DNA from: Nanobdellati archaeon
GTDB taxonomy: Archaea > EX4484-52 > JAADEF01
Direction of reading: 5' to 3'
NCBI GenBank assembly: GCA_026997215.1
Contig: JALWJP010000184.1
Location: 340-31,808, forward strand
DNA length: 31,469 nt
The notes below the pieces were generated by a model. That model ran no database searches. It saw nothing but the letters and a program-made list of their open reading frames with translations, and had not been told where the DNA came from. Below are positions 6,395 to 22,098 of this stretch, piece after piece; within the stretch, counting starts at the first letter, position 1; each line of letters begins with the position of its first letter. The position numbers and the translations under genes are program-made.

Positions 6395-6422
6395 AATTAT
6401 TTAAATATTTATTTAAATAATT
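6395..6422. promoter_or_regulatory. 28-bp AT-only palindrome overlapping the TATA box of the RHH gene
   Basis: AATTATTTAAATA-TT-TATTTAAATAATT, 13-bp arms, two TATTTAAATA units. Confidence 0.6.
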
Positions 6423-6614
6423 CGTTATATATTTTATACTTTATTAAGCGTATCATTTATTATAAAGTTTAAACGCTTTAGAAGTGGTTTTGGAATTATG
6501 ATTTCTATATCATCATCAAATAAAATAGAATAGGTGTTGTGATGTTGTTTTATTTTTATATAAGTATGTTTAGTTAAGTATATACATCTATACCTTAAAG
6601 GCATCGGCACACTA

Positions 6615-6833
6615 TCACTCTTTTATATATGCACCTACTTCTGGGAAGTCTATTTTTATTATATCTATAACTCTCTTCTTCATATTCTTTGGAACCTTTA
6701 ATATTATCTTATCCACTTCTCTTGCTATACTTGCCTTTATGCCTCTGCTATTTAACTCTTCTATCAATGCCAGAATTGGCATCATATTTGTTGTTTCTAT
6801 GATATATATCTTATCCCTCTTCATACTTATCAC
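6615..6833 (-). CDS. Small hypothetical protein, paralog of 12462..12746
   Basis: ILKVPKNMKKRVIDIIKIDFPEV aligns to ILYLPKGFKRKVISFIRINFPDL. Confidence 0.75.
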   Translation of the reverse strand: MISMKRDKIYIIETTNMMPILALIEELNSRGIKASIAREVDKIILKVPKNMKKRVIDIIKIDFPEVGAYIKE

Positions 6834-7005
6834 CTATCTTCTTTATTATTTTTATAATATTCCTCTTATTTATGAAATACTCATTATTTAATGTTTTTAA
6901 TCTAATGAAATCAAAATCCTTATCTATATATTCCACGTCTCCTCTTATCTTTCTAACATTACCACCTTCAATAAAAACAACATCAACCAACACATCTATC
7001 ACCAT
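6811..7005 (-). CDS. Small beta-rich protein, possibly Sm/Hfq-like fold
   Basis: IRGDVEYIDKDFDFIRLKT...YFINKRNIIKI strand pattern; fold call is inference. Confidence 0.55.
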   Translation of the reverse strand: MVIDVLVDVVFIEGGNVRKIRGDVEYIDKDFDFIRLKTLNNEYFINKRNIIKIIKKIGDKYEEG

Positions 7006-7229
7006 TCAAAATCGAATATACTTTTCTTTTTCTTCCTATTACCATCATATATCCTTATAATTAAATAAGGTGACACAAACATGACCTTTGACAACATTCT
7101 AGTATATTCTACAAATGAAACATCTATATCATAATGTTTTTTTAAATAGTTCCGTGTTTTCTCATACCCTTCTTTTAAAATTTTTTCGAATTCATCATCT
7201 ACTCTTATATTCTTACTACCCATAATCAT
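6999..7229 (-). CDS. Small DNA-binding protein, RHH/antitoxin-like
   Basis: SKNIRVDDEFEKILK beta-then-helix start and SFVEYTRML second helix. Confidence 0.55.
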   Translation of the reverse strand: MIMGSKNIRVDDEFEKILKEGYEKTRNYLKKHYDIDVSFVEYTRMLSKVMFVSPYLIIRIYDGNRKKKKSIFDFEW

Positions 7230-7633
7230 TAAATATCTTCATTAAGTAGTTTTGCTTCGTCTCTTCTCCATCTTCCTTTTAACATAACCATAAGGTATTG
7301 TTTAATAACCTTTAAGATAAATATTGCTGTCAACATAAAGAATACCATTGCTAATACATATGCTAATTTTGAATATACATTAACTACGTCATTAACACCG
7401 CTACCTGTATACTCAACCAATTCTATTGTTGTTGTGTTGTTGATAACTGTTATCAATTTCTGCTGTTGTATTGCAGGTAGGTATGATACTGATAATAACA
7501 TTACTATGATGTGTGATATTACTAATGTTAGAAATAGATATTTCAACCATTCACCTTCACTCTCATAATACAACATGGCATAAAGCAATATCAACATAAC
7601 CAAAGGCAATATAAACTCCATCACAATCATCAC
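7229..7633 (-). CDS. Membrane protein (about 3 TM), putative virion/envelope protein
   Basis: Three hydrophobic segments; NNT/NTT sequons in the loop. Confidence 0.75.
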   Translation of the reverse strand: MMIVMEFILPLVMLILLYAMLYYESEGEWLKYLFLTLVISHIIVMLLSVSYLPAIQQQKLITVINNTTTIELVEYTGSGVNDVVNVYSKLAYVLAMVFFMLTAIFILKVIKQYLMVMLKGRWRRDEAKLLNEDI

Positions 7634-7660
7634 CTATCATTAAGATAATCATGTAAATTT

Positions 7661-7673
7661 AAAAAAGAAAAAA
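7661..7673 (-). terminator. Oligo-T archaeal terminator candidate downstream of the putative capsid gene
   Basis: Minus strand TTTTTTCTTTTTT about 27 nt after the stop of 7700..7984. Confidence 0.5.
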
Positions 7674-7699
7674 GCAATGTAAGGGGCAAGCCGTATGGC

Positions 7700-7984
7700 T
7701 TAGACTCCTGCCACATTACCTCTTCCTATATATCTATATATTGCATATAGAGCTGCTCCACCAACTGCAACTACAATTATCACTTTTGCCATGGACACAA
7801 TCAAAGAGTATAGTCCTATAATGTTTGTCATCAATTCCTGTATCACAGTGTTGTTAGTTGTATCAGACAAAGTAGTTATAATAAATGGTCCTAAGAATGT
7901 TGCAACACCGAATACCAGCAACCCAAGACCTATAGACACTAATAGTGCCATGTTTCCTCGTCTCATCTTTCTGCTTAGTCTCAT
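7700..7984 (-). CDS. Putative major capsid protein of spindle-shaped-virus type (hydrophobic helical hairpin)
   Basis: 94 aa; basic leader ending RRG, two long hydrophobic helices linked by polar loop SDTTNNT with an N-glycosylation sequon; own TATA box, strong SD and terminator suggest high expression. Confidence 0.6.
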   Translation of the reverse strand: MRLSRKMRRGNMALLVSIGLGLLVFGVATFLGPFIITTLSDTTNNTVIQELMTNIIGLYSLIVSMAKVIIVVAVGGAALYAIYRYIGRGNVAGV

Positions 7985-7991
7985 TTTATCA

Positions 7992-8025
7992 CCTCATATA
8001 TGAGGAGTATTTAACCATTTTTAAA
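7992..8025 (-). promoter_or_regulatory. Capsid-gene promoter with a perfect 14-bp palindrome over the predicted TSS/SD
   Basis: TTTAAAAA (8025-8018); CCTCATATATGAGG (7992-8005) includes the start of the GAGGTGA SD. Confidence 0.6.
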
Positions 8026-8042
8026 GTTTTGCTAACAATTCA

Positions 8043-8336
8043 TTACTGCTTATATGCTAATGCCACACTAATCGCAAGTAAGATACTATACATTCCTACA
8101 AAATACCAGTTTATTATCCCTATTGCGTATAATATCACAGATACAACACTCATGATAAATAATGATGCCATTGCCGATTGTGAAAAATCATATCTACTTC
8201 TAAATATTGAGAATGTAATTATTGTTAATATAACTACTAATGATTCGCCAAACAATGTCAAACTATCTATATACTTTATAAATCCTATTATTCCATCTAT
8301 TTTTGTTATATCATACAATAATTCAACCATACTCAC
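8043..8336 (-). CDS. Membrane protein (about 3 TM), virion module
   Basis: 97 aa, three hydrophobic segments. Confidence 0.75.
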   Translation of the reverse strand: MSMVELLYDITKIDGIIGFIKYIDSLTLFGESLVVILTIITFSIFRSRYDFSQSAMASLFIMSVVSVILYAIGIINWYFVGMYSILLAISVALAYKQ

Positions 8337-8758
8337 ACCTCTCTATTTAAGAATAATTTTATCATTGCGAACACTACATTAACTATAATTATTGCTATTA
8401 TTATGCTTGTTAGTTCTTCTGGAATCCTCAATATTCCTGATATTTCTGATACAAATATCTCATACATACCCATTAAAGTCGTGAATATTAATTTTGAAGT
8501 CTCATAAAATGTAACTAATGTCACTACAGGCATATTCAATAACTCTATATCACTGATCCTTGCACTTTTTATTGATTCGGCCATATCATATGCCATATTT
8601 TTTATTTCTGAAACATAAGAAGTTACTGCATAATTCTCTATTTGTACTCCATAAGACTCACTAATATCACTAAAAAACATTCCTAATGATGTCATTACTA
8701 ATGAAAATACTAACATTAATACAACGTAATCTTTTAAGTTCATTATCTCATCCTCCAT
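8333..8758 (-). CDS. Membrane protein, virion module
   Basis: 141 aa, N- and C-terminal hydrophobic helices with an amphipathic middle. Confidence 0.75.
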   Translation of the reverse strand: MEDEIMNLKDYVVLMLVFSLVMTSLGMFFSDISESYGVQIENYAVTSYVSEIKNMAYDMAESIKSARISDIELLNMPVVTLVTFYETSKLIFTTLMGMYEIFVSEISGILRIPEELTSIIIAIIIVNVVFAMIKLFLNREV

Positions 8759-11700
8759 AATATATATACTCCTAATACTACCATGGCTATTATTGATGAT
8801 ATTGTTACCATTAAGAATCCCATCACCATTGAAAATATTAATGTTCCTAAAACCAATGTGACACTAATTGCAGGATTATAATACCCAACTCCTATTGCTA
8901 ATAATATCATTAATAATGTTAGGAATAAACCGTCCAAACCAATATTAAACACATATGATTTTTTGCCTATTGTTTTTTCTTCCAATAATATCTCCTTACC
9001 TTCTCCATCAATTGCATATAAGTAATATATATAAGATGAACTTGATAAATTTAAATCATTGCATATCAATTCCAAACTACTGCCTGTTCCTTCATTCTTA
9101 CATGCTATAGTGTAGTTCAATAATGGTAATTCCTCATAAACTATTAACTTTGCACTCTTCATTAAACCTGTTATGTCGGATATTGTGCATGATACTTTTG
9201 TATCACTATAACTGCAATCATATAAGATGTTCTTCCTTTGTAAATACTCGTATTGTATATCTTGAGATACTTTTATGTTAACCGTGAATGGTGGGCATGT
9301 GCTATCTATTCCACAACCTATTATAAATCCATCAGTATCTGCAACAACTTTGTTATTATGTTCTACTATTATCCTATATGTTGCTGTATATGGCTCTATA
9401 AATGTAGATATTTTACCTTCAAAATCAGTATAACCTACATATATAGATATGTATTTATCTTCTGTTGGATAATACCTCATTACTTTAACTAAGTATCCTT
9501 GTAATGGATTACCTATTTCATCAACCACCCTAACAATACCTACATAACTAACTAAATACCTCAATAAGTATAGCACTATATTGTTAACACCTAAAACATT
9601 ATCTCCTGATATGTTAAGTATATACCTTCTTTTCACATAATTGTCAGGATCTAAATCATCATAATAATGATCACCGTATATATTAAATGGTAAGTTTTCA
9701 GAACTAACTAAACATAATTCTTTTGTTGTGTTGTTAAACCTAAAAGTATAATGTCTACTAGCTTTTTCTGTACTTACATCATATATGGCATCTATAATGA
9801 AATCATTTATTACTGTATTATTCTCCTCATCTCTAACCTCGTATATGAACTTATTAGGATATGTGACTCCTTCACATAACCTAAGGTATAGTCCATATAC
9901 TCTTGTTGTTATACTACTTCCTAATGGTCTAACTGAGCCAGATATAATTAATTCTCCTGTTATCTCTCTATCCTGATACTTATCTCCATCTGTTTCTATG
10001 CTTGCATCAGTTATATTTATCATATCAACATCATATGATACTTTTAATGAATTATTTACTTCTATTGTTCTCTGTGTATTTTGTCCTGTTACATTTGTTA
10101 TATATGTTTTAATTGTCCATAGATGCTTATTACAATCATTTATACAAAACATAGTGTAAGTTATGTTCTTTACATTACCCTCTAATATTTTACTATCAAA
10201 ACTTACTCCTTCTAAATAATACCCATACATTAATGTTGTAGTGTTGCTAAATACTGTTTCATTAACTCCTTTATCATACAACCATTCAAAGTTTATGTTT
10301 GTTGCGTTTGTGATGATTAATGGATTTGTTACATTTGCAATGAAACCACCATCATACTTTTTTGCTATAAATGTTGCACTAACAACGTTAATACCTTTAG
10401 ATTTAAATTCAATAGTATCGTATTTCTCTTTTATAACCCATCCATCATATACTGTATTGCTATATACTACATTACCATTCAAATATAATATTACATCAAC
10501 ACCGCCATAACAAATGGTATTTGGTATACAACTATCAACTATATTAACTTCTAACTCATCCATAGATGTATTAAAGTAATAAGTGTAAGGTAAGGTAGTT
10601 AAAGGTATTATTATTTTTGAATCGCTGTACTCATAACTAACAACACTACCATTATGGATGAAATACATATTGGATTTATTAAACAAATATTCGTTAATCA
10701 ATAATTCCAATTTATAATTATATACTTCATCTTCATATTGATAAGGTGTGAAACTGTAATTTATTAATACATAATCATCAACAGTAAATAATATTTCCTC
10801 ATAATTTCTGTTGTAAGAACTATCTATTGCATAAACTGTAAAGTTATGCTGTCCTTCTTCTAATAAATTAGTATTATATTGTAAAATTGTTGCGTTTAAA
10901 TATGTTTCATTATTGTAAATCAAAACATCATCAAACCATGCTTTTAATGTGAAATTGCTATCTTTATCATCTATTGCGTAGTATGTGATATTAAAGTATG
11001 AAGTGTAATACGTTTTATTTTCCACTCCTGTTACGGTTATTGTTTGTGGGTTATCTGTTTGCTCAACTCCGACACTTGTTATTGGTTCAGGTGTAACATA
11101 TTGTCTTAATATTATATTGTCCCAATTTGTCTCCGCAGTACCTGAAGCCGATCCGTCTATATGTGAAATTTCTAAATAAGTAAACCCTAATAATGAACTG
11201 TCATCTACGCTATAGATATTTCCGTAAATGTTTGCAGTAATAGTACTTCCATTATAGCAAAAAGTTGTATGGTATGTTCCTACACTTCTTAATGTAGTAT
11301 CACTTAATAATGTTGTATCAGTACCCGCAACCTTTTTAATAATATATGGTCCATCTCCATTTCCTGTTGTCATATGCATTCTATACTCATTACTAGCGTC
11401 AACCATTACGTGTATTATTCCTCCTGATGCACCTACTCCTTTAGTCCAATCAAAATCTACACAAAATGTATTAAAAGTTGTTAATGTATTAGTATCTGAC
11501 GAAAACCAACCACCTGAAGCTGCGTCTGTTATACATGTTAAATTTAAACTTGTAGAGTTAATAACACAATTAGGGTCTACACTACTCCACTTGCTTAAAT
11601 CACTACTAAAATCTTCATAAAATATAAAAACTGCTGTTGCATTACTTTCACTTGTTGCTAGTGAGTTACCATACCACATCTGTATTGTGTATGTGCTTGA

Positions 11701-12027
11701 CGCAGGAATAGAAGGAACTTTAACCCAAATTCTTGTATTGGCACTATTACAACTTCCATCTTCTATCCAATAACTTAGCTCAGTAACTCCATCGCTTTCA
11801 GTAAATCTAATATCGGAACAATCACTATTCATCTTTCCTTCACTAATTATTGTTGCTGTATCAACCGTTACTAGAACTTGGTAATCTGTTAGTACGTTGC
11901 TGTTTCCTGTATTGTCGATAGTAATATCTCTATAATAACTCCAACCTGATAAGGCATATACGCTACTCATACTCATAAATACTGTTAATAGGATCATACT
12001 TATTAATATCCTATTGTTCATGCCCAT
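8743..12027 (-). CDS. Large secreted, membrane-anchored adhesin/receptor-binding protein with N-terminal DUF2341-like domain
   Basis: Signal peptide; WSYYRDITI...DYQV...SDCSDIRFT...LSYWIE...IWVKVP (DUF2341 pattern); beta-rich repeats; at least 25 N-x-S/T sequons by hand count; 2-3 C-terminal TM helices. Confidence 0.8.
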   Translation of the reverse strand: MGMNNRILISMILLTVFMSMSSVYALSGWSYYRDITIDNTGNSNVLTDYQVLVTVDTATIISEGKMNSDCSDIRFTESDGVTELSYWIEDGSCNSANTRIWVKVPSIPASSTYTIQMWYGNSLATSESNATAVFIFYEDFSSDLSKWSSVDPNCVINSTSLNLTCITDAASGGWFSSDTNTLTTFNTFCVDFDWTKGVGASGGIIHVMVDASNEYRMHMTTGNGDGPYIIKKVAGTDTTLLSDTTLRSVGTYHTTFCYNGSTITANIYGNIYSVDDSSLLGFTYLEISHIDGSASGTAETNWDNIILRQYVTPEPITSVGVEQTDNPQTITVTGVENKTYYTSYFNITYYAIDDKDSNFTLKAWFDDVLIYNNETYLNATILQYNTNLLEEGQHNFTVYAIDSSYNRNYEEILFTVDDYVLINYSFTPYQYEDEVYNYKLELLINEYLFNKSNMYFIHNGSVVSYEYSDSKIIIPLTTLPYTYYFNTSMDELEVNIVDSCIPNTICYGGVDVILYLNGNVVYSNTVYDGWVIKEKYDTIEFKSKGINVVSATFIAKKYDGGFIANVTNPLIITNATNINFEWLYDKGVNETVFSNTTTLMYGYYLEGVSFDSKILEGNVKNITYTMFCINDCNKHLWTIKTYITNVTGQNTQRTIEVNNSLKVSYDVDMINITDASIETDGDKYQDREITGELIISGSVRPLGSSITTRVYGLYLRLCEGVTYPNKFIYEVRDEENNTVINDFIIDAIYDVSTEKASRHYTFRFNNTTKELCLVSSENLPFNIYGDHYYDDLDPDNYVKRRYILNISGDNVLGVNNIVLYLLRYLVSYVGIVRVVDEIGNPLQGYLVKVMRYYPTEDKYISIYVGYTDFEGKISTFIEPYTATYRIIVEHNNKVVADTDGFIIGCGIDSTCPPFTVNIKVSQDIQYEYLQRKNILYDCSYSDTKVSCTISDITGLMKSAKLIVYEELPLLNYTIACKNEGTGSSLELICNDLNLSSSSYIYYLYAIDGEGKEILLEEKTIGKKSYVFNIGLDGLFLTLLMILLAIGVGYYNPAISVTLVLGTLIFSMVMGFLMVTISSIIAMVVLGVYILWRMR

Positions 12028-12029
12028 GA

Positions 12030-12296
12030 TTACAACACCTTCATCATGCTTCTTATTATCTTCCTTATCTCACTAGCTGTTTTTCTTGATATTCTTAAAT
12101 TACTATTATTTTTCTTATAAGTTAGATGATAAAGCAATAATAGTCTACCTTTTGCTATCTTCTTTGTTATTTTGCCTTTATTATAATCACTCAATATAGC
12201 CTTTATAATTTCTTCAAATTCTTTCTTGTTGCTTAATCCTTTTTTTCCTATGTCACTAACATTTACACCTAAATATACGTTTCCCATGTTATTCAC
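12030..12296 (-). CDS. Small basic protein, putative nucleic-acid binding
   Basis: 88 aa, K/R-rich. Confidence 0.7.
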   Translation of the reverse strand: MNNMGNVYLGVNVSDIGKKGLSNKKEFEEIIKAILSDYNKGKITKKIAKGRLLLLYHLTYKKNNSNLRISRKTASEIRKIIRSMMKVL

Positions 12297-12436
12297 CTTA
12301 CAAAATTCTTCATTACTTTCATATATTCTTTCAACTTCTTCTTTATCTCCTTATCATTAATTTCCTTCTCATTCAAAACAACACTCATATCTATTGTTGC
12401 AATATCTATTATATCTTTTTTATTTACACTCTTCAT
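12293..12436 (-). CDS. Small hypothetical protein (47 aa)
   Basis: Hand-translated MKSVNKKDIIDIATIDMSVVLNEKEINDKEIKKKLKEYMKVMKNFVR; AGGTGA SD. Confidence 0.55.
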   Translation of the reverse strand: MKSVNKKDIIDIATIDMSVVLNEKEINDKEIKKKLKEYMKVMKNFVR

Positions 12437-12461
12437 ATTGATATCACCTTCTATTCAATAG

Positions 12462-12746
12462 TCAAGGTTCTAAACGTGCATAATATAAGTCTGGGAAGTT
12501 TATTCTTATGAAACTAATAACCTTCCTTTTAAATCCTTTTGGCAGGTACAATATCCCAGGAACCTCGTCATATCCTTTGACATATCCTGGCTTAATTTCA
12601 ACCTTTATATCATACTTCATTTCCAATGCTTTCTTCAATTCATATAGATCCTCATAAGGAATGTGTGGTAGAAAGGTTATTTCTTCCTTACCTGCTGCCC
12701 ACTTAAAACTACTCTTAGATGCCTTCTTGCTTTTGCTCTTACTCAT
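12462..12746 (-). CDS. Small protein with K/S-rich N-tail, paralog of 6615..6833
   Basis: MSKSKSKKASKSS tail; C-terminal motif shared with 6615..6833. Confidence 0.75.
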   Translation of the reverse strand: MSKSKSKKASKSSFKWAAGKEEITFLPHIPYEDLYELKKALEMKYDIKVEIKPGYVKGYDEVPGILYLPKGFKRKVISFIRINFPDLYYARLEP

Positions 12747-12750
12747 ATTC

Positions 12751-12933
12751 TCACCTCTTTTTCCTTTTTTTGGTTATCATCTTCTTTCTTGTCTTGTACT
12801 TGCCTTCGCTTTTTGCTTTCTTTGCCCCATCTATTGCTCCAGCCAACATATCTCTCTCTTTCTTGTTTAACTTCTTACCTTTACTAACCTTCGACATAAC
12901 CTTTCCTAACTTATCTAATCTTTTCTTACCCAT
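12751..12933 (-). CDS. Very basic 60-aa protein, putative genome-condensing virion protein
   Basis: Extremely K/R-rich (ends KMITKKRKKR); sits in the structural module; role analogous to fusellovirus VP2 is inference. Confidence 0.65.
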   Translation of the reverse strand: MGKKRLDKLGKVMSKVSKGKKLNKKERDMLAGAIDGAKKAKSEGKYKTRKKMITKKRKKR

Positions 12934-12937
12934 TATC

Positions 12938-13408
12938 TCACCTTCTTAAATACATTATTATTATTAATGCAACTCCTATTAAATTAACAACTAATGGTAA
13001 GTATTTAACCAATGAAAGCAATAAAGGATATGAATTAAATATTGATGCAAATATCTCATCTGTTATAAATATATAAATCACATCTGAAAATATTATTGCT
13101 AAAAAGTCAAACAATAAAAGTGATACAACTGCTCCTATCAGGAATATTGGATGCACCGGTATTAATACTGCTGCAACCAATGATGACATGGCTAAAAGGA
13201 ACACTAATGTCACCAATAATTTTGCAAAATAATCATACAACCCTGTTGTCCCACTATACATACTCATTGTTATTGTTGAGTTGTCAACATCATTAACCCA
13301 CACATCTGCAAATGTGCTGTATAGGTAAAATGATACTCCAAAAATGAACACTCCAACCAAAACATATACTGGAACCATAATCAAATCTTGCATACTCACT
13401 ACCATCAC
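12938..13408 (-). CDS. Polytopic membrane protein (about 4 TM), virion module
   Basis: Four hydrophobic segments; NST sequon in the first loop. Confidence 0.8.
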   Translation of the reverse strand: MMVVSMQDLIMVPVYVLVGVFIFGVSFYLYSTFADVWVNDVDNSTITMSMYSGTTGLYDYFAKLLVTLVFLLAMSSLVAAVLIPVHPIFLIGAVVSLLLFDFLAIIFSDVIYIFITDEIFASIFNSYPLLLSLVKYLPLVVNLIGVALIIIMYLRR

Positions 13409-16356
13409 CTTCTTCTCTTCCTTCTTCCTCTCTTTGTTCTTCTTGTTGGTGAAATTATTGGTCTTATCTCCAAACCAGAGAATACTTCTTTGCTAACTCT
13501 TGGTGCTTTTATTCCGAACTCTATTGCAACTAATGAAGGTGCATAACTATATTTAAATCTTCCTCTACCATATTTTGGTTTAGGTTTGCTAGGCAAACTA
13601 AAACCGCCAATATCTTTTATTCTTGGAGGTAATGCTGTTGTTATAAGCGGTGGTGTAATCTCTACTTTTGGTGCTGTTATCTCTATCTTCGGTACACTTA
13701 CCTCTTGTGGAATTGGTTCACTAACTACTCTCGTCATAGGTTGTTCTATTGGTGGTTGTTTAAGCTGATAAGTCTGTATACTCTCCAATTTTGGCATCTG
13801 TGGTTCTTGTATTGGTTTGGTAGGCATCTTTATTACGTCTTTTATACCAGTGGAAGGTATTGTTATCATCTCTCCCTTTCCTACTTTAATAGGCATTATT
13901 CCGAATCCTTTGATTGTTGGTTTACCTATTGGAACTTTAAGCCCTCTAAAATCATAAGATACCTTACTAATATCGAATTTAACCTCAGGAAGTTTAACCT
14001 TTAAACCTGCCTCTGGTTTTAATATCTTTGCCATATCTTCTTGTATTGCTTCTGCTTTAATCTTTGTTCCTGTTAATGATAATCCACCTTTTAACTTTCT
14101 TCCAAATAATGGTTTCTTGCCTTCTATCACAACTTTAAACTCCTTATCAGGTATTGCATACTTTTCAACAACATCCATACCTCTTATCTCCTTTAAACGT
14201 GTTGTTCTAACTAATTTCCCTTGCTTCCATACTGCGTCTCCTATCTCAACTATATCTCTTATATTCCCTTCTGTTGCATATGATATTTTTTTGACTTGGT
14301 GAACATTTAGTTGTTTCATTCTCGCCAATCCTTCATTAACTGATTGCATTTCCTTCTCTATAACTATTGGTAATTTCTCTCTCCTAAAAACTCTAACCTC
14401 TTCTGCTTTTGCTGGTTCTTTGGTTATTGGCAATCCTCTCAATTTACCTTCTCCTTCAAATAGGATTCTGTTCTTGCCAATATCAACTATTCTATAATGA
14501 TATTTATCTCCTGTGATATACTCAACCATTCTTCTGTTGCCCTTAACAACTTTACTATATACTTTTAACTTGTCAAAAGAAGTGCTGAACTTCATCTTAT
14601 AATCAGGTGTATTAACATTAACAATTGCTGATTCTGGTTTCTCATACATAACCTTATACCTACCTATTGTTGGTTTCTGTTCTAATAGTATATTCTTCTC
14701 TCCTTTAATCAACATTGTACCTTCTCCTTTGATTGCTTTGCTTATCTCTTTCGGTCTTGTTATTATCCTACCTCTTCCCTCAACACGTGTCTTAGGTGTC
14801 TTTATCGAAGTCATGTATCCTTCAAATGTTTTTTGATATATTCCTGCTCCTGCTTTACCTAAAAAGTAGAACATTGGTATTGCTGCTATATCTCCTATTG
14901 CTTTTGATAAGTCTTTCTCTTTAATACCTTCATAAACATCATATCCTGTCATTCCTGCATAAGTGATGCCCATTCCAATACCTATTCCTTTTGGTGCTGT
15001 TCTAACTGCTGTAACTGCCAACTCTGCCGCTTTTGTTCCTGGCCTAAGTAATGGAACCCACCTAACATTAGATAATGCCACACTACCATATCCTGCTATC
15101 TCTGTTAATGCAACTGTTGATAATGTTCCTGCAACTTGTTTCTTTTTATATGTTTCATATGCTTCTATACCTCCTGTATTCAAAATGTACAATCTTTTTG
15201 CCAATCTCTCTTTTGCTATATCGCTTGGTGTTGGCAACCATTCTTTTGCTTTCTTCTCTAATAAAACATCGTACTTTTCAGGTAAGAATATCTCTGCTGT
15301 TTTAATTGCTCCCCATCCTACTGCACTACCTATATACCTTAAACTCCCTCCTCTAAACATATTAATATCTTCAAATAATGCTGCTCCATGTGCCTTAATC
15401 TTTGTCTTATATGATGTTTCGTATATGCTTTTGGCAACTTCCTGTGCTGATTCCCATTCTTTTTGAATATCATAACCAATTTGTGGCTCGTATTTTGATA
15501 CTCCATATATGTATAATTTTGGCTTATGATATGCTGCATAAGTATCTAGATATTGGTTATATCTAATCTTATTCTCTTCTACTTTTTTTAGACCTTCATC
15601 TATATCCTTTGTGTCTATTGCCTCAACTTCACTTTTTGCTTTTAGTAATCTCTCCTTCTCAGATTCTAAATAAGAAATTGCTTCGTTACCATATAATTTT
15701 CTACCTTCTACTATTAAATATAATCTATCATCTTTTTTAAGTGCTCCTATTTTTTCATCTAAATCTTTAAGATTCTCCTTTATTCTTCTTTCATAAGCCT
15801 TCTTTAAAAACATTCTATACTCTCTCTCTTTCCTTAATGCTTCTTTTTGTCCTTCGAAATCTGTTGAAGATGAACTGAACGTGCTTATATTCCTTAGATA
15901 TTGTGCAGTACTTGTTGGTTCTGTTTCTTTAAATCTACCTTCCTTCTCATCATAATAATAAGTTTTCCCTTCTTCGTCAACAAACCTTCCTCCAACATAA
16001 TGTATTCTACCCCCACCCTTCTTTTTAACTAATTCCTTGGCCTTTTCTTCATACTCCTTTCTTGCTCTCCTTCCTTTCTCATACAATTTTCTTGCCTTGC
16101 TTATTGCTTCTGTATCACCTCTTTTTATCTTCTCTATCCATTTCTCCCTTTCTTCACGTGTATAAACTGATAAATTTTTAACATAATTGACTAATGTTCC
16201 CTTATCAACTGAAGAGTTTGAACTTCTTCTCGAACTTGATTTCCTTTTATTAGAAGATGAAGATTTAGACTTTTTCTTAGGTTCATCTAAATAAACAACT
16301 GTTCCATCTGCTCTTACTGAGAACGGCCTTCCCAATTGTACTCTAACTTTAACCAT
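13405..16356 (-). CDS. Large 983-aa protein: basic termini, coiled coil, central Gly/Ala hydrophobic helices, Pro-rich linker; putative virion/DNA-delivery protein
   Basis: K/S/R-rich N-terminus, helical K/E region, GIGIGMGITYAGMTG-type segments, P/Q/E-rich region, C-terminal YAPSLVAIEFGI...GLEIRP then poly-Arg. Confidence 0.75.
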   Translation of the reverse strand: MVKVRVQLGRPFSVRADGTVVYLDEPKKKSKSSSSNKRKSSSRRSSNSSVDKGTLVNYVKNLSVYTREEREKWIEKIKRGDTEAISKARKLYEKGRRARKEYEEKAKELVKKKGGGRIHYVGGRFVDEEGKTYYYDEKEGRFKETEPTSTAQYLRNISTFSSSSTDFEGQKEALRKEREYRMFLKKAYERRIKENLKDLDEKIGALKKDDRLYLIVEGRKLYGNEAISYLESEKERLLKAKSEVEAIDTKDIDEGLKKVEENKIRYNQYLDTYAAYHKPKLYIYGVSKYEPQIGYDIQKEWESAQEVAKSIYETSYKTKIKAHGAALFEDINMFRGGSLRYIGSAVGWGAIKTAEIFLPEKYDVLLEKKAKEWLPTPSDIAKERLAKRLYILNTGGIEAYETYKKKQVAGTLSTVALTEIAGYGSVALSNVRWVPLLRPGTKAAELAVTAVRTAPKGIGIGMGITYAGMTGYDVYEGIKEKDLSKAIGDIAAIPMFYFLGKAGAGIYQKTFEGYMTSIKTPKTRVEGRGRIITRPKEISKAIKGEGTMLIKGEKNILLEQKPTIGRYKVMYEKPESAIVNVNTPDYKMKFSTSFDKLKVYSKVVKGNRRMVEYITGDKYHYRIVDIGKNRILFEGEGKLRGLPITKEPAKAEEVRVFRREKLPIVIEKEMQSVNEGLARMKQLNVHQVKKISYATEGNIRDIVEIGDAVWKQGKLVRTTRLKEIRGMDVVEKYAIPDKEFKVVIEGKKPLFGRKLKGGLSLTGTKIKAEAIQEDMAKILKPEAGLKVKLPEVKFDISKVSYDFRGLKVPIGKPTIKGFGIMPIKVGKGEMITIPSTGIKDVIKMPTKPIQEPQMPKLESIQTYQLKQPPIEQPMTRVVSEPIPQEVSVPKIEITAPKVEITPPLITTALPPRIKDIGGFSLPSKPKPKYGRGRFKYSYAPSLVAIEFGIKAPRVSKEVFSGLEIRPIISPTRRTKRGRRKRRR

Positions 16357-16404
16357 GATTAATTAGTTTTCGTCCATATTTTAAAAATATGTAAAAATGA
16401 AAAA

Positions 16405-17256
16405 TTATCTTGTTGTGTTTATGTTATTGACCACATTATATAGCCTATTAACCGCTACATCTAATTTATTCGCTGTATCCTGCATATTATCAGTACTTTC
16501 TTTTATCATTTGTGCAACATACACATTTTGATTTGATTGTTGTTTCATTGATTGCGTGATAGTATATGACACGTTTCTTAATTCATTTATTGTTTGGTAT
16601 GTAAGTTTCTTTTGCATGTCCATTGTATTTTTAAATGTGTCTGCAAACTTATTATGCATCTCTGATATTTTCATACTACCATATACGAATATTACTGACG
16701 TCATCAATATTGCCACTAATGCTAATATCTGTACGCCATATTTTGACCAGAAATCCATTTTACTTCTGTACATCTCATAACTATCGTGGTATTGTTGAAC
16801 TAACCAACTATCCTTATCATATGTTTTTTGTGCTATCATATGTGGAATTGGTACTATCTCTCCATTATCTAATTCTATGTCTCCTCTGAATATTGGCACA
16901 TCATCATAACCAATTAAATTCCCATCATCGTCGTATTTAGGAACCTTCATGATTAAATTTGTATCATCTGATAATATAGGATAAAACAATTCATTTGACA
17001 TTTGATATAAGTATATCGTTGCAACATCATTTATATTGTAGAACTTGCTAATATCTTGTAATGGTATTTTATAATTGTATTTTTTCCTGCCAACCTTAAT
17101 GAAGAAATCAAAAAACTTATATGCTACTTCTCCATTATTTTCTATGTTCCTTCTCTTCTCCCTTAACACCCTACCTCTACCATCATATATTGCAATCCCA
17201 TTTCCATATTTCCTAAACACAAACACTTTTATAGGATACTTTGTAGCCTCAAACAT
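16405..17256 (-). CDS. Single-TM membrane protein with C-terminal coiled coil, morphogenesis module
   Basis: Start reassigned to ATG at 17256 (MFEATK) after GAGGTGA; TM ILALVAILMTSVIFVY; heptad Q/N/M-rich tail. Confidence 0.8.
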   Translation of the reverse strand: MFEATKYPIKVFVFRKYGNGIAIYDGRGRVLREKRRNIENNGEVAYKFFDFFIKVGRKKYNYKIPLQDISKFYNINDVATIYLYQMSNELFYPILSDDTNLIMKVPKYDDDGNLIGYDDVPIFRGDIELDNGEIVPIPHMIAQKTYDKDSWLVQQYHDSYEMYRSKMDFWSKYGVQILALVAILMTSVIFVYGSMKISEMHNKFADTFKNTMDMQKKLTYQTINELRNVSYTITQSMKQQSNQNVYVAQMIKESTDNMQDTANKLDVAVNRLYNVVNNINTTR

Positions 17257-17260
17257 TTTC

Positions 17261-17785
17261 TCACCTCTTAAATGGAAGTATTGACCTCTTCTCCTTATCA
17301 TCTCCTTCCTTTACTATTACCCTCTCTGAACTTCCTATAACTCTCATTCCCATTCCTGCTAATGATTTCCTAAGGTTACTTTCAAATAGGTTAAGTATTA
17401 TGCTTATGACTATTGTTGCTTTATCAGGTGTTAAATCAAACTTCTCCATATTGACATAATAGAAGTCACTCAACTTCCTCATAAGATACCTGCATATTAT
17501 CATCACTCTATCTTCATCGTAAATAGATAATCCATAGATCCTACCATCTATAAATGCTGATATTAATGCTATTGTTTGCTCTATCCCTTCCTCATTCATT
17601 AATGGCTTTGCACCTTTTGGAACTTTTATCTTTATTGCACCTGTTTTCTTATCCTCTTCTACATACCCACCTTTAAGTTTTGCTTTTAACTCATATACTA
17701 ATAATCTGTAATCAAACATCCATCTTACTTCCTTCTCTTCTGGTGGATTATAACTCTCTTCCTCAACACGTCCTTCTGTTTCCAT
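17261..17785 (-). CDS. Hypothetical helical protein, morphogenesis module
   Basis: 174-aa ORF with GGTGA SD; PLMNEEGI motif. Confidence 0.75.
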   Translation of the reverse strand: METEGRVEEESYNPPEEKEVRWMFDYRLLVYELKAKLKGGYVEEDKKTGAIKIKVPKGAKPLMNEEGIEQTIALISAFIDGRIYGLSIYDEDRVMIICRYLMRKLSDFYYVNMEKFDLTPDKATIVISIILNLFESNLRKSLAGMGMRVIGSSERVIVKEGDDKEKRSILPFKR

Positions 17786-17795
17786 TTAATCACCC

Positions 17796-18122
17796 TTACA
17801 ACTCGCCTATCGTCATTCTTGGTATACTTCTCTTTATTCTTTTTAATAATTCTATAAATTTGAATTCTGATATTGCAGTACTATACATCTCCATATCTTT
17901 TGTTCCTATTTCTTCTTCTAATCTTCTACTTTCTTCTTCTATCTTATTGAAATAATCTTGATCCAATTCATCCATCATTAAACTCTCTAATGCTGATACA
18001 TATACAACAAAATCTCTTGTACCATATCTATCTATTATTTTAAGTATTGTGAATTTTATTATATCATTTATATCCAAATCCTTTATCACTGATGCAACCT
18101 TTACTACGTCTCCTTCGCTCAT
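17796..18122 (-). CDS. Hypothetical protein
   Basis: 108-aa ORF directly downstream of the ATPase. Confidence 0.75.
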   Translation of the reverse strand: MSEGDVVKVASVIKDLDINDIIKFTILKIIDRYGTRDFVVYVSALESLMMDELDQDYFNKIEEESRRLEEEIGTKDMEMYSTAISEFKFIELLKRIKRSIPRMTIGEL

Positions 18123-18123
18123 A

Positions 18124-19131
18124 TCAACCCCCCTTCCACATCTTCTCTATTATTCTTTTTAACCTTCTTGCTTGAGAATATGTTAGTCCAAACTCATCTC
18201 TTAAATCATCTAAATACACTCTACCGTTATTCATTAACCTGTCTCTTAATTCGGGTGTATCTAAAACTTTCTTTGCTAACTCATCCAATTGATTCTTCTT
18301 ATCTTCCTCAGAACCAAATTCTGATTCTTCAAACTTTTCTATCTCCTTTAATAAATCTTTACCTAATTTATCCTTAAACTTCCTTGCTCTCTCTTCATAT
18401 GCTCTTGCCAAATCTTCTGAAGGCAAACCAACTTTTACTGATGATAACTTCTCAATTGTTCCTGTTGCTACATTGTATATCCTTGGTGCTTTATAGTATA
18501 TGTTACCAGTATAATAATCTTTTATCAGTATTCTTGGATTAGTATATACCGTCTGCATACTATTCTCCAATACTTTGTTGTTGAATAGAACATACTCCAT
18601 TAACTTCCTAACTCCTACATCAACAAAACTTATGTGTGGTGTGATAACCATTGCCATTCCTCTCTTGTATCTAAATGTTGATAAGATATAAAGTATTGCT
18701 CGGTTAATGAATGAATAGAATGTTCTGTTGTTTATCAATAATTCTGCCTCGTCTAATATCACAACTTGCCCCGGCAATGTCTCTCCTGTATGCCTTTGTC
18801 TTCTATTATCCCAATAGTTTATTGCTTCTATGAATGCCTTAGGTGTCCACACAACCTTCTTATCTATATCTTCTAAAAGATACTTATCCATTTGTTCTCC
18901 TATCTTTAACCCCGTATAGGATTTACCAACTCCAACCAACCTTCTATTATTCCCTGTTATAGAAATAACAAACCCTCTTCTATTATCATATATCTCTTTC
19001 TCAAATAGTTTTATCAACGCTTTATCTCCTTTCCTTGGATCATATTGCATATAAACACGAACATAATCACTGCTACCTTGCATAAAACTTTCATTAACGT
19101 CATACTTTAAAAAGATTCTACATATTTCCAA
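18124..19131 (-). CDS. P-loop ATPase of morphogenesis (Zot/fusellovirus B251-like) type with C-terminal HTH
   Basis: ITGNNRRLVGVGKS (expanded Walker A), VVILDEAE Walker B, STFRYKR; C-terminal LDDLRDEFGLTYSQARRL HTH; ATG at 19083 is a likely leaderless start about 25 nt from a TTTAAA box. Confidence 0.75.
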   Translation of the reverse strand: MEICRIFLKYDVNESFMQGSSDYVRVYMQYDPRKGDKALIKLFEKEIYDNRRGFVISITGNNRRLVGVGKSYTGLKIGEQMDKYLLEDIDKKVVWTPKAFIEAINYWDNRRQRHTGETLPGQVVILDEAELLINNRTFYSFINRAILYILSTFRYKRGMAMVITPHISFVDVGVRKLMEYVLFNNKVLENSMQTVYTNPRILIKDYYTGNIYYKAPRIYNVATGTIEKLSSVKVGLPSEDLARAYEERARKFKDKLGKDLLKEIEKFEESEFGSEEDKKNQLDELAKKVLDTPELRDRLMNNGRVYLDDLRDEFGLTYSQARRLKRIIEKMWKGG

Positions 19132-19176
19132 AATATATATATAATATTTATTATATATACATTATACTACATAATA

Positions 19177-19821
19177 GTGAAAATAGTGCAATATTCAAAA
19201 AAAAGCTATTTTTTGAATAACTATTTAAATTCTACTGATAAATACTATTATATGCCCCGATACTCTTACAATTTAGATGATTTTATAATAAAACTACTTT
19301 TAATGTCACCGGAAAAAAGATTAAAGATAATCAGAAGAATGTATAACATACTCCCTAATGCTGAACAAAAAGCTGCTTTTGCCTTACTTTATATCTATGG
19401 ATTAAGACCAGCAGAATTACTTGAATTAAAACAATCAAACTTCCAACAATTAAATGATAACACCCTTCGTGTGTTCTTACCTACTAAGAAAGGTGGTAAG
19501 ACACGTATAATAGATTTAAATATAAATGAAACACCTTTCTTAAAAGAAACATGGGAATTCATAAAATCTCGTCCTTGGAAGATATTTCCACGTTGGAATC
19601 ATGTATCTATACTCAACAACACTATATTTAAAACCATCTATGAAGTGTTAGGTATAAATATAAGTCCTTATGCCTTCCGTCATTATAGGTTATCCTTTAT
19701 AATGTATAATGGTGGAGATGTACATGAAGTTGCTGCATGGAAAGGAGCATCAGACATTAGAAGTGTAATGCCTTATCTAAGATTTAAACCTGTAAGTAAA
19801 TTTAAAAGAAAAATAAGTTAA
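19177..19821 (+). CDS. Minimal tyrosine recombinase/integrase (catalytic domain only)
   Basis: LLYIYGLRPAEL (Arg I), KKGGKTR (Lys), PYAFRHY (Arg II), SVMPYL (Tyr); likely start ATG 19252, about 25 nt after TTTAAAT; only plus-strand gene. Confidence 0.85.
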   Translation: MKIVQYSKKSYFLNNYLNSTDKYYYMPRYSYNLDDFIIKLLLMSPEKRLKIIRRMYNILPNAEQKAAFALLYIYGLRPAELLELKQSNFQQLNDNTLRVFLPTKKGGKTRIIDLNINETPFLKETWEFIKSRPWKIFPRWNHVSILNNTIFKTIYEVLGINISPYAFRHYRLSFIMYNGGDVHEVAAWKGASDIRSVMPYLRFKPVSKFKRKIS

Positions 19822-20285
19822 GGTCTTGTTATGTATGCCGCTATGGTTAATGCCGTATGGTATAACCCATCATTTGCCCTAACTTCTTTTGTTATTATCT
19901 TCATTTCATCTATCTCCCATCCTCTCATCTCAAATGCTTCTTTAAGCATATTCTCTAATTTCTCTCTAACAACTTTCTCCTCAACTTTGTCATGGTATTC
20001 ATAAAATAACCCCCCTCTTCTCCCTTTTATTGTTGCATATCCAATTCCACAACTTGCTACTCCTTCTTTTATAGTTATATGAGAATATACTGCTGGTATT
20101 ACCTCTCCTATTTCTAAGGTAGGTAGTTTGTCTATAAATTTGGCTGTCTCAGGTATAACACTACTCAACTTAACCAAATTCACATTACCTACTCCCGCCT
20201 TCAACAATGCGTTATCAAAAGAAGATAGTTCCTCTTTACCAACACCCTCACTACTATCTATATATATCCACACTTCTTCCATCAC
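19818..20285 (-). CDS. pdaD: Pyruvoyl-dependent arginine decarboxylase (makes agmatine)
   Basis: SSFDNALLKAGVGNVNLVKLSSVIP signature including the Ser-Ser autocleavage site; GLFYEY conserved Glu; 155 aa. Confidence 0.9.
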   Translation of the reverse strand: MMEEVWIYIDSSEGVGKEELSSFDNALLKAGVGNVNLVKLSSVIPETAKFIDKLPTLEIGEVIPAVYSHITIKEGVASCGIGYATIKGRRGGLFYEYHDKVEEKVVREKLENMLKEAFEMRGWEIDEMKIITKEVRANDGLYHTALTIAAYITRP

Positions 20286-20292
20286 ACATCAC

Positions 20293-21642
20293 CTATGATA
20301 TATCATTTTCATTAAGATTTAATAAATTTTTGAACCCATACAATGCTATTAACAAACTATCAAAATAATCAGGTGATTTATCCTCTCTATCTATCACCCT
20401 ATATTGTCCATATTTATTATAGTCATATCTTATGTTTATCAAATCATCAATTAATGCAGAATCCTTAGGTATTAATATCTTACCATCATCTAACAACTTC
20501 TTTAATATAAATGCCATCTCTGTTTTTATGTTCTCATACTTCTCCTTATTAAAAGGTTTAGCCATGGCATAAAACTCCTCTACATTATCATACCCTCTCT
20601 CCCTTAACATATCCACAACTCCTGCTCCAACGCCATTTGCATCAACAACTATCTTATACATATTCTCCTTGCTATAATTTGTATAGATATAACTCACATT
20701 ACTCACTACCGATGATAATTCCTTCTTCGTTAATTGTTTTATACGCCTGATATAATATTTATCCTTATGTGGTGAATATGCCAATACTGTTATCACGGTA
20801 GAATCATCACCAAACCTCGCAACATCAACCCCTATCACCATCTTTACACTCTCTTTATAAGGTACTTTGAAGTTATTGTAATCTTTATATGCCTTTTTAA
20901 TGCTTTCGTGAGAATATAATGCATCTTCATCATCAACAAACTTAACTTCATACATCTTAACAAATTCTGTATTGCTCAATAAACTCTTCATTTTCTCCAC
21001 ATCTTTTAATGATAGTCTGCCTTCTTGTACTGCCAATTTATAATCTATCTCATATACTTTGTAATCCTCATCATTATAAGTATTGAAAAAGTGGTTCTTC
21101 ATTATTGGTGTTCCGTTCTCTAATATGATGCCATCTTTCTTAACGGTTCTCATAACATAATTCCGGTATTTGTAATCGTCTATAATCACACTCTCATCAA
21201 CTATCAATAAGTCTGCATTATATAATACATTCTTCCATAACTTATCATGTATATGTGCTGCTATTATCTTGCTATTATTTTTAAAAACAATTTTATCGTC
21301 AGAAAATTCCGGTCTTGGTACACTAAAATGTTCCTTTATATATTGTTGGCTTATTAATGGGCTTCTCTCTATTAAGTTCTTTATATATCCCATAACCATC
21401 TTAGATTGTTTACTATTGTTTGACATTATCACAACTTCAACATTATCATTCAATATAGCAAATAGTAATCCCGATATTGCAGATATATAAGATTTTCCCC
21501 ATTTCGGTGGTGCTAATATCAGTAACCTTTTAGTATGGGCTAAAACATCCTCTAATATATTTAATTGTGTGTTTGTTAATTCAACTTCTGGTAACAATGT
21601 TTTCACAATCATCTTCACAAAAAAATCCACTATTATCACCAA
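20293..21642 (-). CDS. terL: Terminase large subunit (ATPase + RNase H-like nuclease)
   Basis: LTNTQ Q-motif, APPKWGKS Walker A, LLIVDES Walker B, GTP coupling motif; nuclease GVDVARFGDDST, VVDANGVG, SPDYFDS. Confidence 0.88.
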   Translation of the reverse strand: MVIIVDFFVKMIVKTLLPEVELTNTQLNILEDVLAHTKRLLILAPPKWGKSYISAISGLLFAILNDNVEVVIMSNNSKQSKMVMGYIKNLIERSPLISQQYIKEHFSVPRPEFSDDKIVFKNNSKIIAAHIHDKLWKNVLYNADLLIVDESVIIDDYKYRNYVMRTVKKDGIILENGTPIMKNHFFNTYNDEDYKVYEIDYKLAVQEGRLSLKDVEKMKSLLSNTEFVKMYEVKFVDDEDALYSHESIKKAYKDYNNFKVPYKESVKMVIGVDVARFGDDSTVITVLAYSPHKDKYYIRRIKQLTKKELSSVVSNVSYIYTNYSKENMYKIVVDANGVGAGVVDMLRERGYDNVEEFYAMAKPFNKEKYENIKTEMAFILKKLLDDGKILIPKDSALIDDLINIRYDYNKYGQYRVIDREDKSPDYFDSLLIALYGFKNLLNLNENDIS

Positions 21643-22098
21643 TTATATACTTGCTGTTTGTATCTTCTTATTAGATAACCATTCTTTATATAAATTCTTT
21701 ATCATCTCTATATTGTCTGTATGTATCTTTGTGATATTTGTTTGTTCCTCAATATCATCATCTTTCAACCTAAATGCACTTAATACCTTTCCATATTCTT
21801 TACCAATATCAACTATTGCTTTGATGGCATCTAACTTCTCCTTCGCGTTTGAGGAATAAAACAATATCTTCTGTGCTTCTTTTAAGCTTTTGGCAAATGC
21901 AAAATGTAAAGCAACGCCAACCTCTTTGACTTCCTTGGTTGACGCTGCTTTTAGGATCCATTTTATATCCCTATTTATTGTCTCATATCTAACTCCATAT
22001 TTCTCTGCTAATGCTGTTCTGTTTATATTGAATAATCCTATCTCTTCTATTAATTTCTTTATCTCTAACCTTCTCTCCATTGTTTTTAATGGTGGCAT
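21643..22098 (-). CDS. HTH protein, putative terminase small subunit
   Basis: NRTALAEKYGVRYETINRDI HTH; immediately upstream of terL. Confidence 0.6.
   Translation of the reverse strand: MPPLKTMERRLEIKKLIEEIGLFNINRTALAEKYGVRYETINRDIKWILKAASTKEVKEVGVALHFAFAKSLKEAQKILFYSSNAKEKLDAIKAIVDIGKEYGKVLSAFRLKDDDIEEQTNITKIHTDNIEMIKNLYKEWLSNKKIQTASI

Follow-up and report, generated by a model that had tools for sequence, protein, structure and literature searches.

Head-tailed viruses and herpesviruses have three hallmarks that are regarded as inseparable: the large terminase subunit (TerL), the portal and the HK97 capsid. Spindle-shaped viruses form a group apart that is confined to archaea, and how they package their DNA is not understood. 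Their signature is a hydrophobic α-helical hairpin major capsid protein (MCP) combined with an AAA+ ATPase, and in the spindle viruses of DPANN and Asgard archaea, paralogous MCPs and a tyrosine integrase are often present (bioRxiv 10.1101/2025.02.15.638363). PAV1, a spindle-shaped virus of vent Thermococcales, is placed in the proposed 'Osirisviridae' (Res Sq preprint PMC12934983). For DPANN archaea, viruses of the spindle type are already described in the literature; the new element described here is a terminase pair. It is located on C184, a contig of 31,808 bp from the metagenome-assembled genome (MAG) of a Nanobdellati archaeon (GenBank assembly GCA_026997215.1, contig JALWJP010000184.1), of which bases 340-31808 were analysed as one stretch of 31,469 nucleotides (the window; feature coordinates are window positions). 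On this contig, a spindle-type module is joined to an intact pair of small and large terminase subunits (TerS/TerL), a combination seen nowhere else in the searches run.

The genes of C184 point to two ancestries in one replicon, with TerL intact and no detectable portal, HK97 capsid or tail genes. Since the relatives of TerS and TerL are linked to portals and the relatives of the module lack TerL, C184 would represent a natural chimera between two virus realms. In the reading regarded here as fairly likely, it is the genome, probably both complete and circular, of a virus that encodes an integrase and has as its host an Aenigmatarchaeota-related DPANN archaeon from a hydrothermal vent, and a chimera of two virus lineages. 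The first-pass annotation of the window had noted TerL and a TerS-like gene next to a structural block of membrane proteins, small basic proteins, a 94-amino-acid (aa) two-helix protein, an adhesin and an ATPase, and had offered a chimera as one explanation. Pfam, PHROG and homology searches bear out the terminase pair, and every feature of the block (about 13 kb) is found where it had been placed, on the minus strand. The kinship of the two arms agrees with a chimera as well, with portal-bearing head-tailed archaeal viruses on the TerS/TerL side and TerL-less spindle-type elements on the side of the block. The terminase arm comprises the following features.

20293-21642, minus strand: TerL, 449 aa, full length; Pfam Terminase_6N and Terminase_6C above cut-offs, PHROG phrog_2 at 2.4e-24
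21643-22098, minus strand: TerS-like small DNA-binding protein, 151 aa, directly upstream of TerL
22111-23824, minus strand: two ParB_N-domain proteins (194 and 254 aa; Pfam ParB_N) flanking a 123-aa protein of no assigned family
28756-29373, minus strand: AAA_24 (RecA-like) ATPase; Pfam AAA_24, 40% identity to the homologue in the head-tailed relative L009, E 1.7e-40

In a search of 5.8 billion proteins, the closest TerLs are 25-36% identical to that of C184. Genomic context was read for seven of the nearest relatives (P0003, P0004, P0006, P0007, P0008, P0011 and P0015), and in six of the seven (P0003, P0004, P0007, P0008, P0011 and P0015) TerL is followed by a portal gene recognized by Pfam. 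All six of these contigs encode MuF, five have an HK97 or SU10 capsid match (the capsid match of L011 is faint), most have an S78 protease and two a tail tube. A small unannotated gene directly precedes TerL in all six, and ParB_N lies upstream of TerL in the P0003 and P0004 contigs. The TerS-like gene of C184, which weakly matches phrog_15023, has a homologue in the 169-aa gene that immediately precedes TerL in the head-tailed relative L012 (phmmer E 4.6e-15; tblastn 32% identity), and the ParB_N genes are homologous to those ahead of TerS/TerL in the head-tailed L009 and L011 (E about 1e-12). The ParB_N, TerS, TerL and AAA_24 genes are thus common to C184 and its head-tailed relatives, and at least the AAA_24, ParB, TerS and TerL genes, as judged by homology, derive from head-tailed archaeal viruses. 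The likeness to these Caudoviricetes (L009-L012 and L074-L076) extends over the string of ParB_N, TerS-like and TerL genes, AAA_24 and membership of the same TerL clade. It ends after TerL, where the head-tailed viruses continue with the portal and, in most cases, MuF, S78 protease, HK97/SU10 capsid and tail-tube genes, whereas C184 has the spindle-type module instead.

In a maximum-likelihood tree, the C184 protein is nested, on a long branch, in a clade of portal-linked TerLs. It keeps every column that is invariant across 11 relatives; conserved residues are G49/K50 of Walker A, D149/E150 of Walker B, R165, and D273, D280, D334, D425 and D428 of the nuclease. Because all invariant motifs are retained, TerL is probably functional. 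Unselected frames close fast in AT-rich DNA, and a 449-codon frame that is open in a genome of 30% G+C (GC) content and has kept all invariant residues suggests that TerS/TerL are under selection. Only two of the inspected members of the TerL clade are portal-less, C184 being one. The other is P0006 (L013, a contig of Logan SRR6240789, TerL at 5716-7071), in which no portal lies downstream and TerL adjoins GmrSD_N, AAA_23 and host-like PPDK genes; this TerS-like/TerL pair may belong to a provirus in decay, or be a further terminase that lies outside a head module.

The first-pass annotation had recognized no portal, HK97 capsid, protease or tail features, and all subsequent searches agree. Pfam was applied to 49 of the 58 listed open reading frames (ORFs) and PHROGs to 20, nine ORFs of 50-88 aa being scanned against neither. 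Among the ORFs scanned, there was no Pfam or PHROG match to a portal, HK97 MCP, S78 or other protease, tail protein, tail tube, tape measure or baseplate. Profiles of the portal (A4) and the MCP (A5) were built from the TerL relatives' own proteins. At E ≤ 1, neither A4 and PF04860 for the portal nor A5 and PF05065 for the MCP find anything in the whole 0.9-Mb bin, so that portal and capsid genes elsewhere on the contig, which had been allowed for, were found neither on the full contig nor in the bin. When A4 and A5 were compared by hhalign with every C184 protein of at least 90 aa, the probability reached at most 1.2% (portal) and 2.5% (MCP). Neither the 983-aa protein nor the 298-aa protein (283 aa in the first-pass annotation), for which a structural match to a portal or capsid would have counted against the first-pass reading, resembles these profiles. 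A tblastn search of the window with all ORFs of four TerL relatives returned only the shared arm genes and one small domain match, and no protease or tail gene.

A head-tailed virus whose portal, capsid and tail proteins have diverged beyond recognition would still be conceivable from the 108-, 174- and 298-aa proteins of the block, which have no annotated function, and from the single-sequence AlphaFold2 (AF2) model of the 298-aa protein, whose predicted local distance difference test (pLDDT) score of 45 allows its use for secondary structure only and gives no fold verdict. This alternative is highly improbable. Pfam recognized the portal in six of six portal-linked relatives and the capsid family in five of six, no C184 protein resembles the relatives' portal or MCP profiles, the only large proteins of C184 have counterparts in TerL-less spindle-type genomes, and homology to His1 and PAV1 proteins was positively found. 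C184 has one of the four defining features of Caudoviricetes, TerL; a portal, an HK97-fold MCP and protease/tail genes were not found. With three of the four features failing, C184 should not be filed there despite its TerL.

The small domain match concerns a 72-aa ORF (6615-6833, minus strand) that is 46% identical (E 1e-17) to residues 188-256 of a 646-aa protein (L011:7315-9255) located between the portal and the capsid gene of a head-tailed relative. A 94-aa ORF in the spindle block (12462-12746, minus strand), distinct from the hairpin protein below, is a paralogue of the 72-aa ORF (E 3e-7). What the three proteins have in common appears to be a small mobile domain that occurs across two virus types.

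The other arm, at about 6.4-19.8 kb, would be a spindle-shaped-virus morphogenesis module consisting of an ATPase, one or more hairpin proteins, an ORF89 homologue, an ORF898-like protein, an adhesin, membrane proteins and an integrase. Apart from the integrase, its principal features are as follows.

18124-19131, minus strand: AAA+/Zot-like morphogenesis P-loop ATPase whose C-terminal tail is helix-turn-helix (HTH)-like
17261-17785, minus strand: 174-aa module protein, homologue of a 198-aa gene of the TerL-less virus G042 (E 1-2e-4)
16405-17301, minus strand: 298-aa protein with a beta-rich N-terminal part, a transmembrane (TM) segment at residues 186-213 and a helical C-terminus
13405-16356, minus strand: 983-aa highly basic protein, net charge +73
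12030-12296, minus strand: 88-aa basic protein (+14), homologue of PAV1 ORF89; BLASTP 36% identity over the full length, E 4e-13, hhalign 96.7%
8743-12027, minus strand: 1094-aa surface adhesin; lectin-type domain Pfam DUF2341 4.7e-26, signal-like hydrophobic N-terminus, C-terminal TM anchor, 28 N-x-S/T sequons
8043-8758, minus strand: membrane proteins of 141 and 97 aa with TM segments, a conserved adjacent pair
7700-7984, minus strand: 94-aa α-helical hairpin protein with two hydrophobic segments, candidate MCP
7229-7633, minus strand: 134-aa membrane protein with three hydrophobic segments and a 29-nucleotide near-identical match to C121, a contig of the same bin

The family alignment of the ATPase matches ORF16 of the spindle-shaped virus His1 by hhalign with 90.9% probability (E 1e-6, 134 columns; 85.9% for the single sequence), and both proteins have an unusual, expanded P-loop of the form ITG-x7-GK[ST] and a C-terminal HTH. 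An exhaustive profile search found 4,363 representatives at E ≤ 1e-3, which marks a very large family. All eight top-ranked family members scanned and the C121 ATPase match phrog_5484, as does His1 ORF16 itself (2.8e-62), and the C184 ATPase is of this His1 ORF16/phrog_5484 type. In its ATPase, C184 agrees with the spindle-type archaeal viruses, and its genes suggest that it works as they do. A weak PDB match to 2r2a (labelled 'Uncharacterized protein'), which we take to be the N-terminal domain of Zot, was also obtained. It has been pointed out that ATPases of spindle-type viruses carry annotations as assembly proteins of filamentous phages (bioRxiv 10.64898/2026.08.12.739948), which fits the Zot-like hints for the C184 protein. 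Homologues 23-27% identical to it are encoded by the module relatives, and ATPase homologues occur in C121, G012:C35, G035:C250 and G009:C41. Other searches were uninformative: single-sequence patterns of TerL and the ATPase, like alignment A1, found no match in IMG/VR; a word-indexed protein search returned only the ATPase itself; and GenBank phages yielded nothing to tblastn with the ATPase and the hairpin proteins as queries, the low-complexity filter probably masking hydrophobic queries.

The Walker A loop has a feature of its own. A seven-residue insertion is common to the C184 ATPase and His1 ORF16 (L028:5081-6007, minus strand), and an ordinary GxTGSGKS loop is present in the C121 and C35 ATPases and in the eight top-scoring database matches inspected.

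Among the remaining block proteins, TM-like segments occur in seven, from the one at 16405-17301 down to that at 7229-7633, and a small basic protein of 60 aa carries a net charge of +21. The 174-aa protein has its G042 homologue two genes upstream of the ATPase, with a 185-aa ORF between. Counterparts of the 983-aa protein, of 836-917 aa, occupy the same position in C121, G012:C35 and G042. Like PAV1 ORF898, it has a basic N-terminus, a hydrophobic centre rich in Gly, and a C-tail that is basic and ends in an aromatic motif; this is a likeness in architecture only, as the hhalign E value of 0.065 amounts to no statistical support. ESM Atlas feature searches with the 298-aa and 983-aa proteins gave scores of at most 0.84 and were uninformative, with no more than faint leads to SSV1 B277 and PT-TG. 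The adhesin, whose sequons suggest glycosylation, is 42% identical over 431 aa to that of C121; the 951-aa protein of G012:C35 is homologous to it via C121, and G042 has a 1003-aa Laminin_G_3 protein at the same position. Between C184 (11666-11958) and C121 (G000:C121 2584-2876), a 290-nucleotide patch in the N-terminal DUF2341 part has 86% nucleotide identity, a sign of what may be recent recombination of receptor-binding parts in one host population. The 141-aa/97-aa pair has consecutive homologues in the IMG/VR contig L077 (E 6e-6 and 8e-5). The 94-aa protein is modelled by AF2 (6-sequence alignment) as two helices, 3-42 and 46-92, with a pLDDT of 68, and an 86-aa homologue lies in G009:C41 about 0.6 kb downstream of the ATPase, with one 96-aa ORF between (E 1.4e-5).

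A sphaerolipovirus-like reading of the block, in which the ATPase would be followed by single-jelly-roll capsid proteins of about 174 and 298 aa, was rejected, since the ATPase is a member of the His1 family, the 298-aa protein includes a TM segment as well as a long tail of helices, and no evidence points to jelly rolls.

The module occurs without TerL, and with other replication genes, in G000:C121, G012:C35, G009:C41 and the complete IMG/VR genomes G042 and G043; the records of the DPANN-associated IMG/VR spindle-type elements are IMGVR_UViG_3300022693_001820 and IMGVR_UViG_3300028883_000537. C121 is syntenic with G012:C35, and both have a basic protein of 840-890 aa, an adhesin of about 950 aa with C-terminal TM helices and pairs of two-helix hydrophobic proteins of 62-74 aa. 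Across the module relatives, the TM-anchored lectin adhesins range from roughly 950 to 1650 aa. G042 (28.6 kb, with terminal repeats) encodes a D5-like helicase, an MT-A70 methylase, a C184-like integrase and a pair made up of a 917-aa protein and a 1003-aa Laminin_G_3 protein; G043 measures 35.4 kb; and in G009:C41 the module is paired with a DUF927 helicase. Searches with the C184 TerL as query found no TerL in the G012 MAG or, beyond C184, in the bin of C121. The TerL profile A3 found nothing in the complete G042 and G043 records, and no TerL was found in the 12.9-kb contig L077. G009 has a distant TerL-like match on another contig, C29; the module contig C41 was not searched on its own. 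The occurrence of the same module with differing replication genes suggests that the module travels, and C184 is the only member found with TerS/TerL.

In the C121 and C35 elements, one of two paralogous hairpin proteins (L007:3162-3386, minus strand; L008:14041-14259, plus strand) carries at its very N-terminus a K/R-G-Q motif with a hydrophobic stretch behind it, reminiscent of the class III (pilin-type) signal peptides of archaea, which hints at processing of a capsid-like protein by a prepilin peptidase.

Compared with PAV1, C184 has in common the origin from hydrothermal vents, a circular genome (probably, for C184), the ORF89 homologue and a layout of P-loop ATPase, giant basic protein, membrane proteins, large lectin-type adhesins and small hydrophobic proteins. 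It differs in size and host (18 kb and Thermococcales for PAV1; 31.8 kb, 30% GC and a DPANN host for C184). Its ATPase has in His1 ORF16 a closer relative than in PAV1 ORF375, where the match is confined to the P-loop; PAV1 ORF121 is not detectably similar to the 94-aa protein; and the adhesins of the two cannot be aligned. The PAV1 annotation lists no TerS/TerL, ParB or AAA_24, all of which C184 has. His1 (Halspiviridae) resembles C184 in its homologous ATPase, its TM-anchored spike-like proteins and, by a weak match, its VP21-type two-helix protein. In contrast to C184, which is probably circular, has no recognized polymerase and carries a terminase pair, it has a linear 14.5-kb genome and a protein-primed DNA polymerase. 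The uncultivated DPANN spindle-type elements share the ATPase, a basic protein of 850-1000 aa, a lectin adhesin, hairpin proteins and an integrase (G042), and differ in their D5-like or DUF927 helicases and in that TerL queries detected no TerL/TerS in them. Since pleomorphic viruses, too, have an ATPase of the His1 ORF16 class, spindle and pleomorphic shapes are both conceivable; PHROG scans found no VP4-type fusion spike or VP3 matrix protein of Pleolipoviridae, no pleolipovirus protein was compared directly, and the ATPase class alone is shared. The module would build a particle, most likely lemon-shaped or possibly pleomorphic, at the membrane, without a portal or an icosahedral head.

Several observations count against C184 being a complete virus of mixed ancestry with a working terminase. 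In TerL, three near-invariant positions of the ATPase domain deviate (T46P, R47K and loss of a Gly before Walker B), although the Arg replaced by R47K is also missing in two relatives. The branch of TerL is long, at 1.74 where the median is 0.46 (the branches of two portal-linked members are comparable), and the motor may thus be altered. The C184 ATPase itself has no direct PHROG match. The first-pass test for a helical-hairpin capsid match at 7700-7984 gave a mixed result: the hairpin is predicted by the model, and the capsid assignment is weak. The best of 45 PAV1, His1 and control proteins is His1 VP21, with an hhalign score of 22 and a probability of 21%, and Foldseek of the hairpin model against BFVD and PDB returned generic helical hairpins only, a fold so simple that Foldseek cannot discriminate it. 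No second TerL-bearing spindle element was found in the searches run, so that the coupling may be either a single case or a trait of a lineage. A single assembly from a single run supports C184. As to circular closure, no terminal overlap was found between the ends of C184, a scaffold gap of 10 N lies 329 bases from its start, inside the DUF2201/VWA gene that spans the ends, and the upstream fragment of this gene adds no score to the VWA family profile; frame continuity is the one line of support.

The minus-strand DUF2201/VWA ORF cut by the high end of C184 continues in frame and free of stops into the first 328 bases of the contig. The end fragment starts at position 150 of the 382-position family profile, so that an upstream part is needed, and the gene ahead of the fragment at the contig start (271-1338) encodes a MoxR-type AAA protein, the usual partner of such VWA proteins. 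Closure is accordingly regarded as quite probable, though not proven, and if it holds, all genes of the element are in view; C184 is probably a complete genome of about 31.8 kb. The N-terminal 200 or so residues of the VWA protein have no match to the usual metallopeptidase-like DUF2201_N region (window 1-1338 and 30676-31469; C184 1-339).

An assembly or scaffolding artefact, in which a fragment of a tailed virus and a spindle virus were joined in silico, is suggested by the dependence on one metagenome assembly, by the 10-N gap in the scaffold and by the lack of an independent contig with the C184 sequence in the database searches. The junction itself, which includes two genes left out of the first-pass annotation, argues otherwise.

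19177-19821, plus strand: tyrosine integrase, 214 aa; Pfam Phage_integrase 6.9e-12
19818-20285, minus strand: pyruvoyl-dependent arginine decarboxylase (PdaD); Pfam PvlArgDC 5.6e-31, an auxiliary gene at the module junction

PdaD and the integrase, which lie between TerL and the ATPase, overlap by 4 bases, the start codons of the integrase and the ATPase are 45 bases apart, and no repeat common to other contigs occurs at the junctions that could have misled an assembler. Tetranucleotide usage is uniform, with correlations of 0.93-0.97 between the arms and 0.90-0.96 for the short TerS-TerL-PdaD segment; one strand, the minus strand, carries all genes but one; and the GC skew is strong, even and continuous. 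In addition, C121 from the same bin combines homologues of both arms (PD-(D/E)XK, ATPase and adhesin), and in any fragment of a tailed virus a portal would be expected right after TerL. C184 is thus, by these features, not an obvious misassembly, and a join made in silico is very unlikely. A recent integrase-mediated co-integrate was rejected as well, no att-like direct repeats above chance being found at the borders of the spindle module. The integrase has a homologue near the ATPase of the TerL-less complete virus G042 (E 1e-4).

The preferred explanation, a chimeric virus, leaves the role of the terminase to be assigned. Of the arm of AAA_24, PD-(D/E)XK, two ParB, TerS and TerL genes, at least AAA_24, ParB, TerS and TerL would have come from head-tailed archaeal viruses, whose portal-to-tail block was replaced, and TerS/TerL would have been kept by selection. 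Their likeliest role would be to recognize replicative concatemers and cut them into unit genomes by means of the nuclease and perhaps the ATPase, the unit genomes then being encapsidated by the spindle ATPase machinery; this is the simplest role because it needs no portal. The stronger proposal, that TerS/TerL take an active part in building a spindle or pleomorphic virion that has neither a portal nor an HK97 capsid, cutting concatemers and perhaps driving DNA into the particle, is considered unlikely.

Alternatively, TerS/TerL could be passengers of the recombination that made the chimera, with no role in the virus cycle and either decaying or used outside packaging. The absence of TerL from every other member of the module family found, the long branch and the three deviations of TerL, and the likewise portal-less P0006 beside GmrSD-like genes all agree with such a fate. 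Both genes, however, are full length with every invariant motif residue present, and in composition they have become fully ameliorated to 30% GC, an argument that they have long resided in the genome under purifying selection, so that idle passengers are a decidedly improbable explanation.

A third possibility is suggested by phage satellites, which divert helper procapsids using a TerS of their own. C184 might lead a satellite-like double life, forming its own spindle particles or none, with TerS/TerL diverting procapsids from a head-tailed virus that co-infects the same host. The two terminase genes are intact and paired, their relatives work with portals, and head-tailed relatives with TerLs exist in the same archaeal order (G008 and G009); for archaea, satellites of both spindle and tailed viruses have been put forward (bioRxiv 10.1101/2025.02.15.638363; 10.64898/2026.08.12.739948). 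Set against this, no helper was identified and no portal or MCP was found in the bin, and TerL is at most 36% identical to any known relative. At 31.8 kb and with a full morphogenesis module of its own, comparable to the complete G042 and G043, C184 is unlike known satellites and does not fit their definition, in which an element of the PICI or pSSVx-like kind has no complete morphogenesis module and depends on a helper. A satellite is therefore quite an unlikely reading.

The source and the remaining genes of C184 are consistent with a virus of a vent DPANN archaeon. C184 is the longest contig of its bin (0.9 Mb, 200 contigs, 82% complete, 32% GC), and one public run only, a hydrothermal-vent metagenome, holds its sequence. 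The elongation factor 2 (EF-2) of the bin shares 99% identity with its counterpart in a 'Nanobdellati archaeon' MAG and 62-69% with those of Aenigmatarchaeota MAGs; since this EF-2 is of DPANN type, a DPANN archaeon is presumed to be the host. A host link is provided by the PdaD and DUF2341 genes of C184, which resemble those of the bin. PdaD, 46% identical to the bin's own copy on C48 (G000:C48), is by this similarity an auxiliary metabolic gene that ties the DPANN virus to its host. No CRISPR spacer of the bin was found to match the C184 contig, and no DNA polymerase, primase or replicative helicase was recognized in the C184 genome. Other assigned genes are listed below.

23754-24887, minus strand: PAPS-reductase/DUF3440 protein, adjoining the ParB pair
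4709-5710, minus strand: RNA ligase
3689-4063, minus strand: Hjc-type Holliday junction resolvase
2268-2714, minus strand: Dam-type methyltransferase

For the classification of metagenomic contigs, C184 is a warning that a TerL match alone is insufficient to call a sequence 'Caudoviricetes'. It adds to the little-known virome of the DPANN archaea of hydrothermal vents and is a concrete example of gene modules being exchanged between virus realms. A terminase in actual use would offer a handle on how spindle viruses mature or package their DNA. Should TerS/TerL indeed work in the formation of the virion, C184 would be the first terminase-dependent virus outside Duplodnaviria, in which the terminase has been uncoupled from the portal and the capsid.

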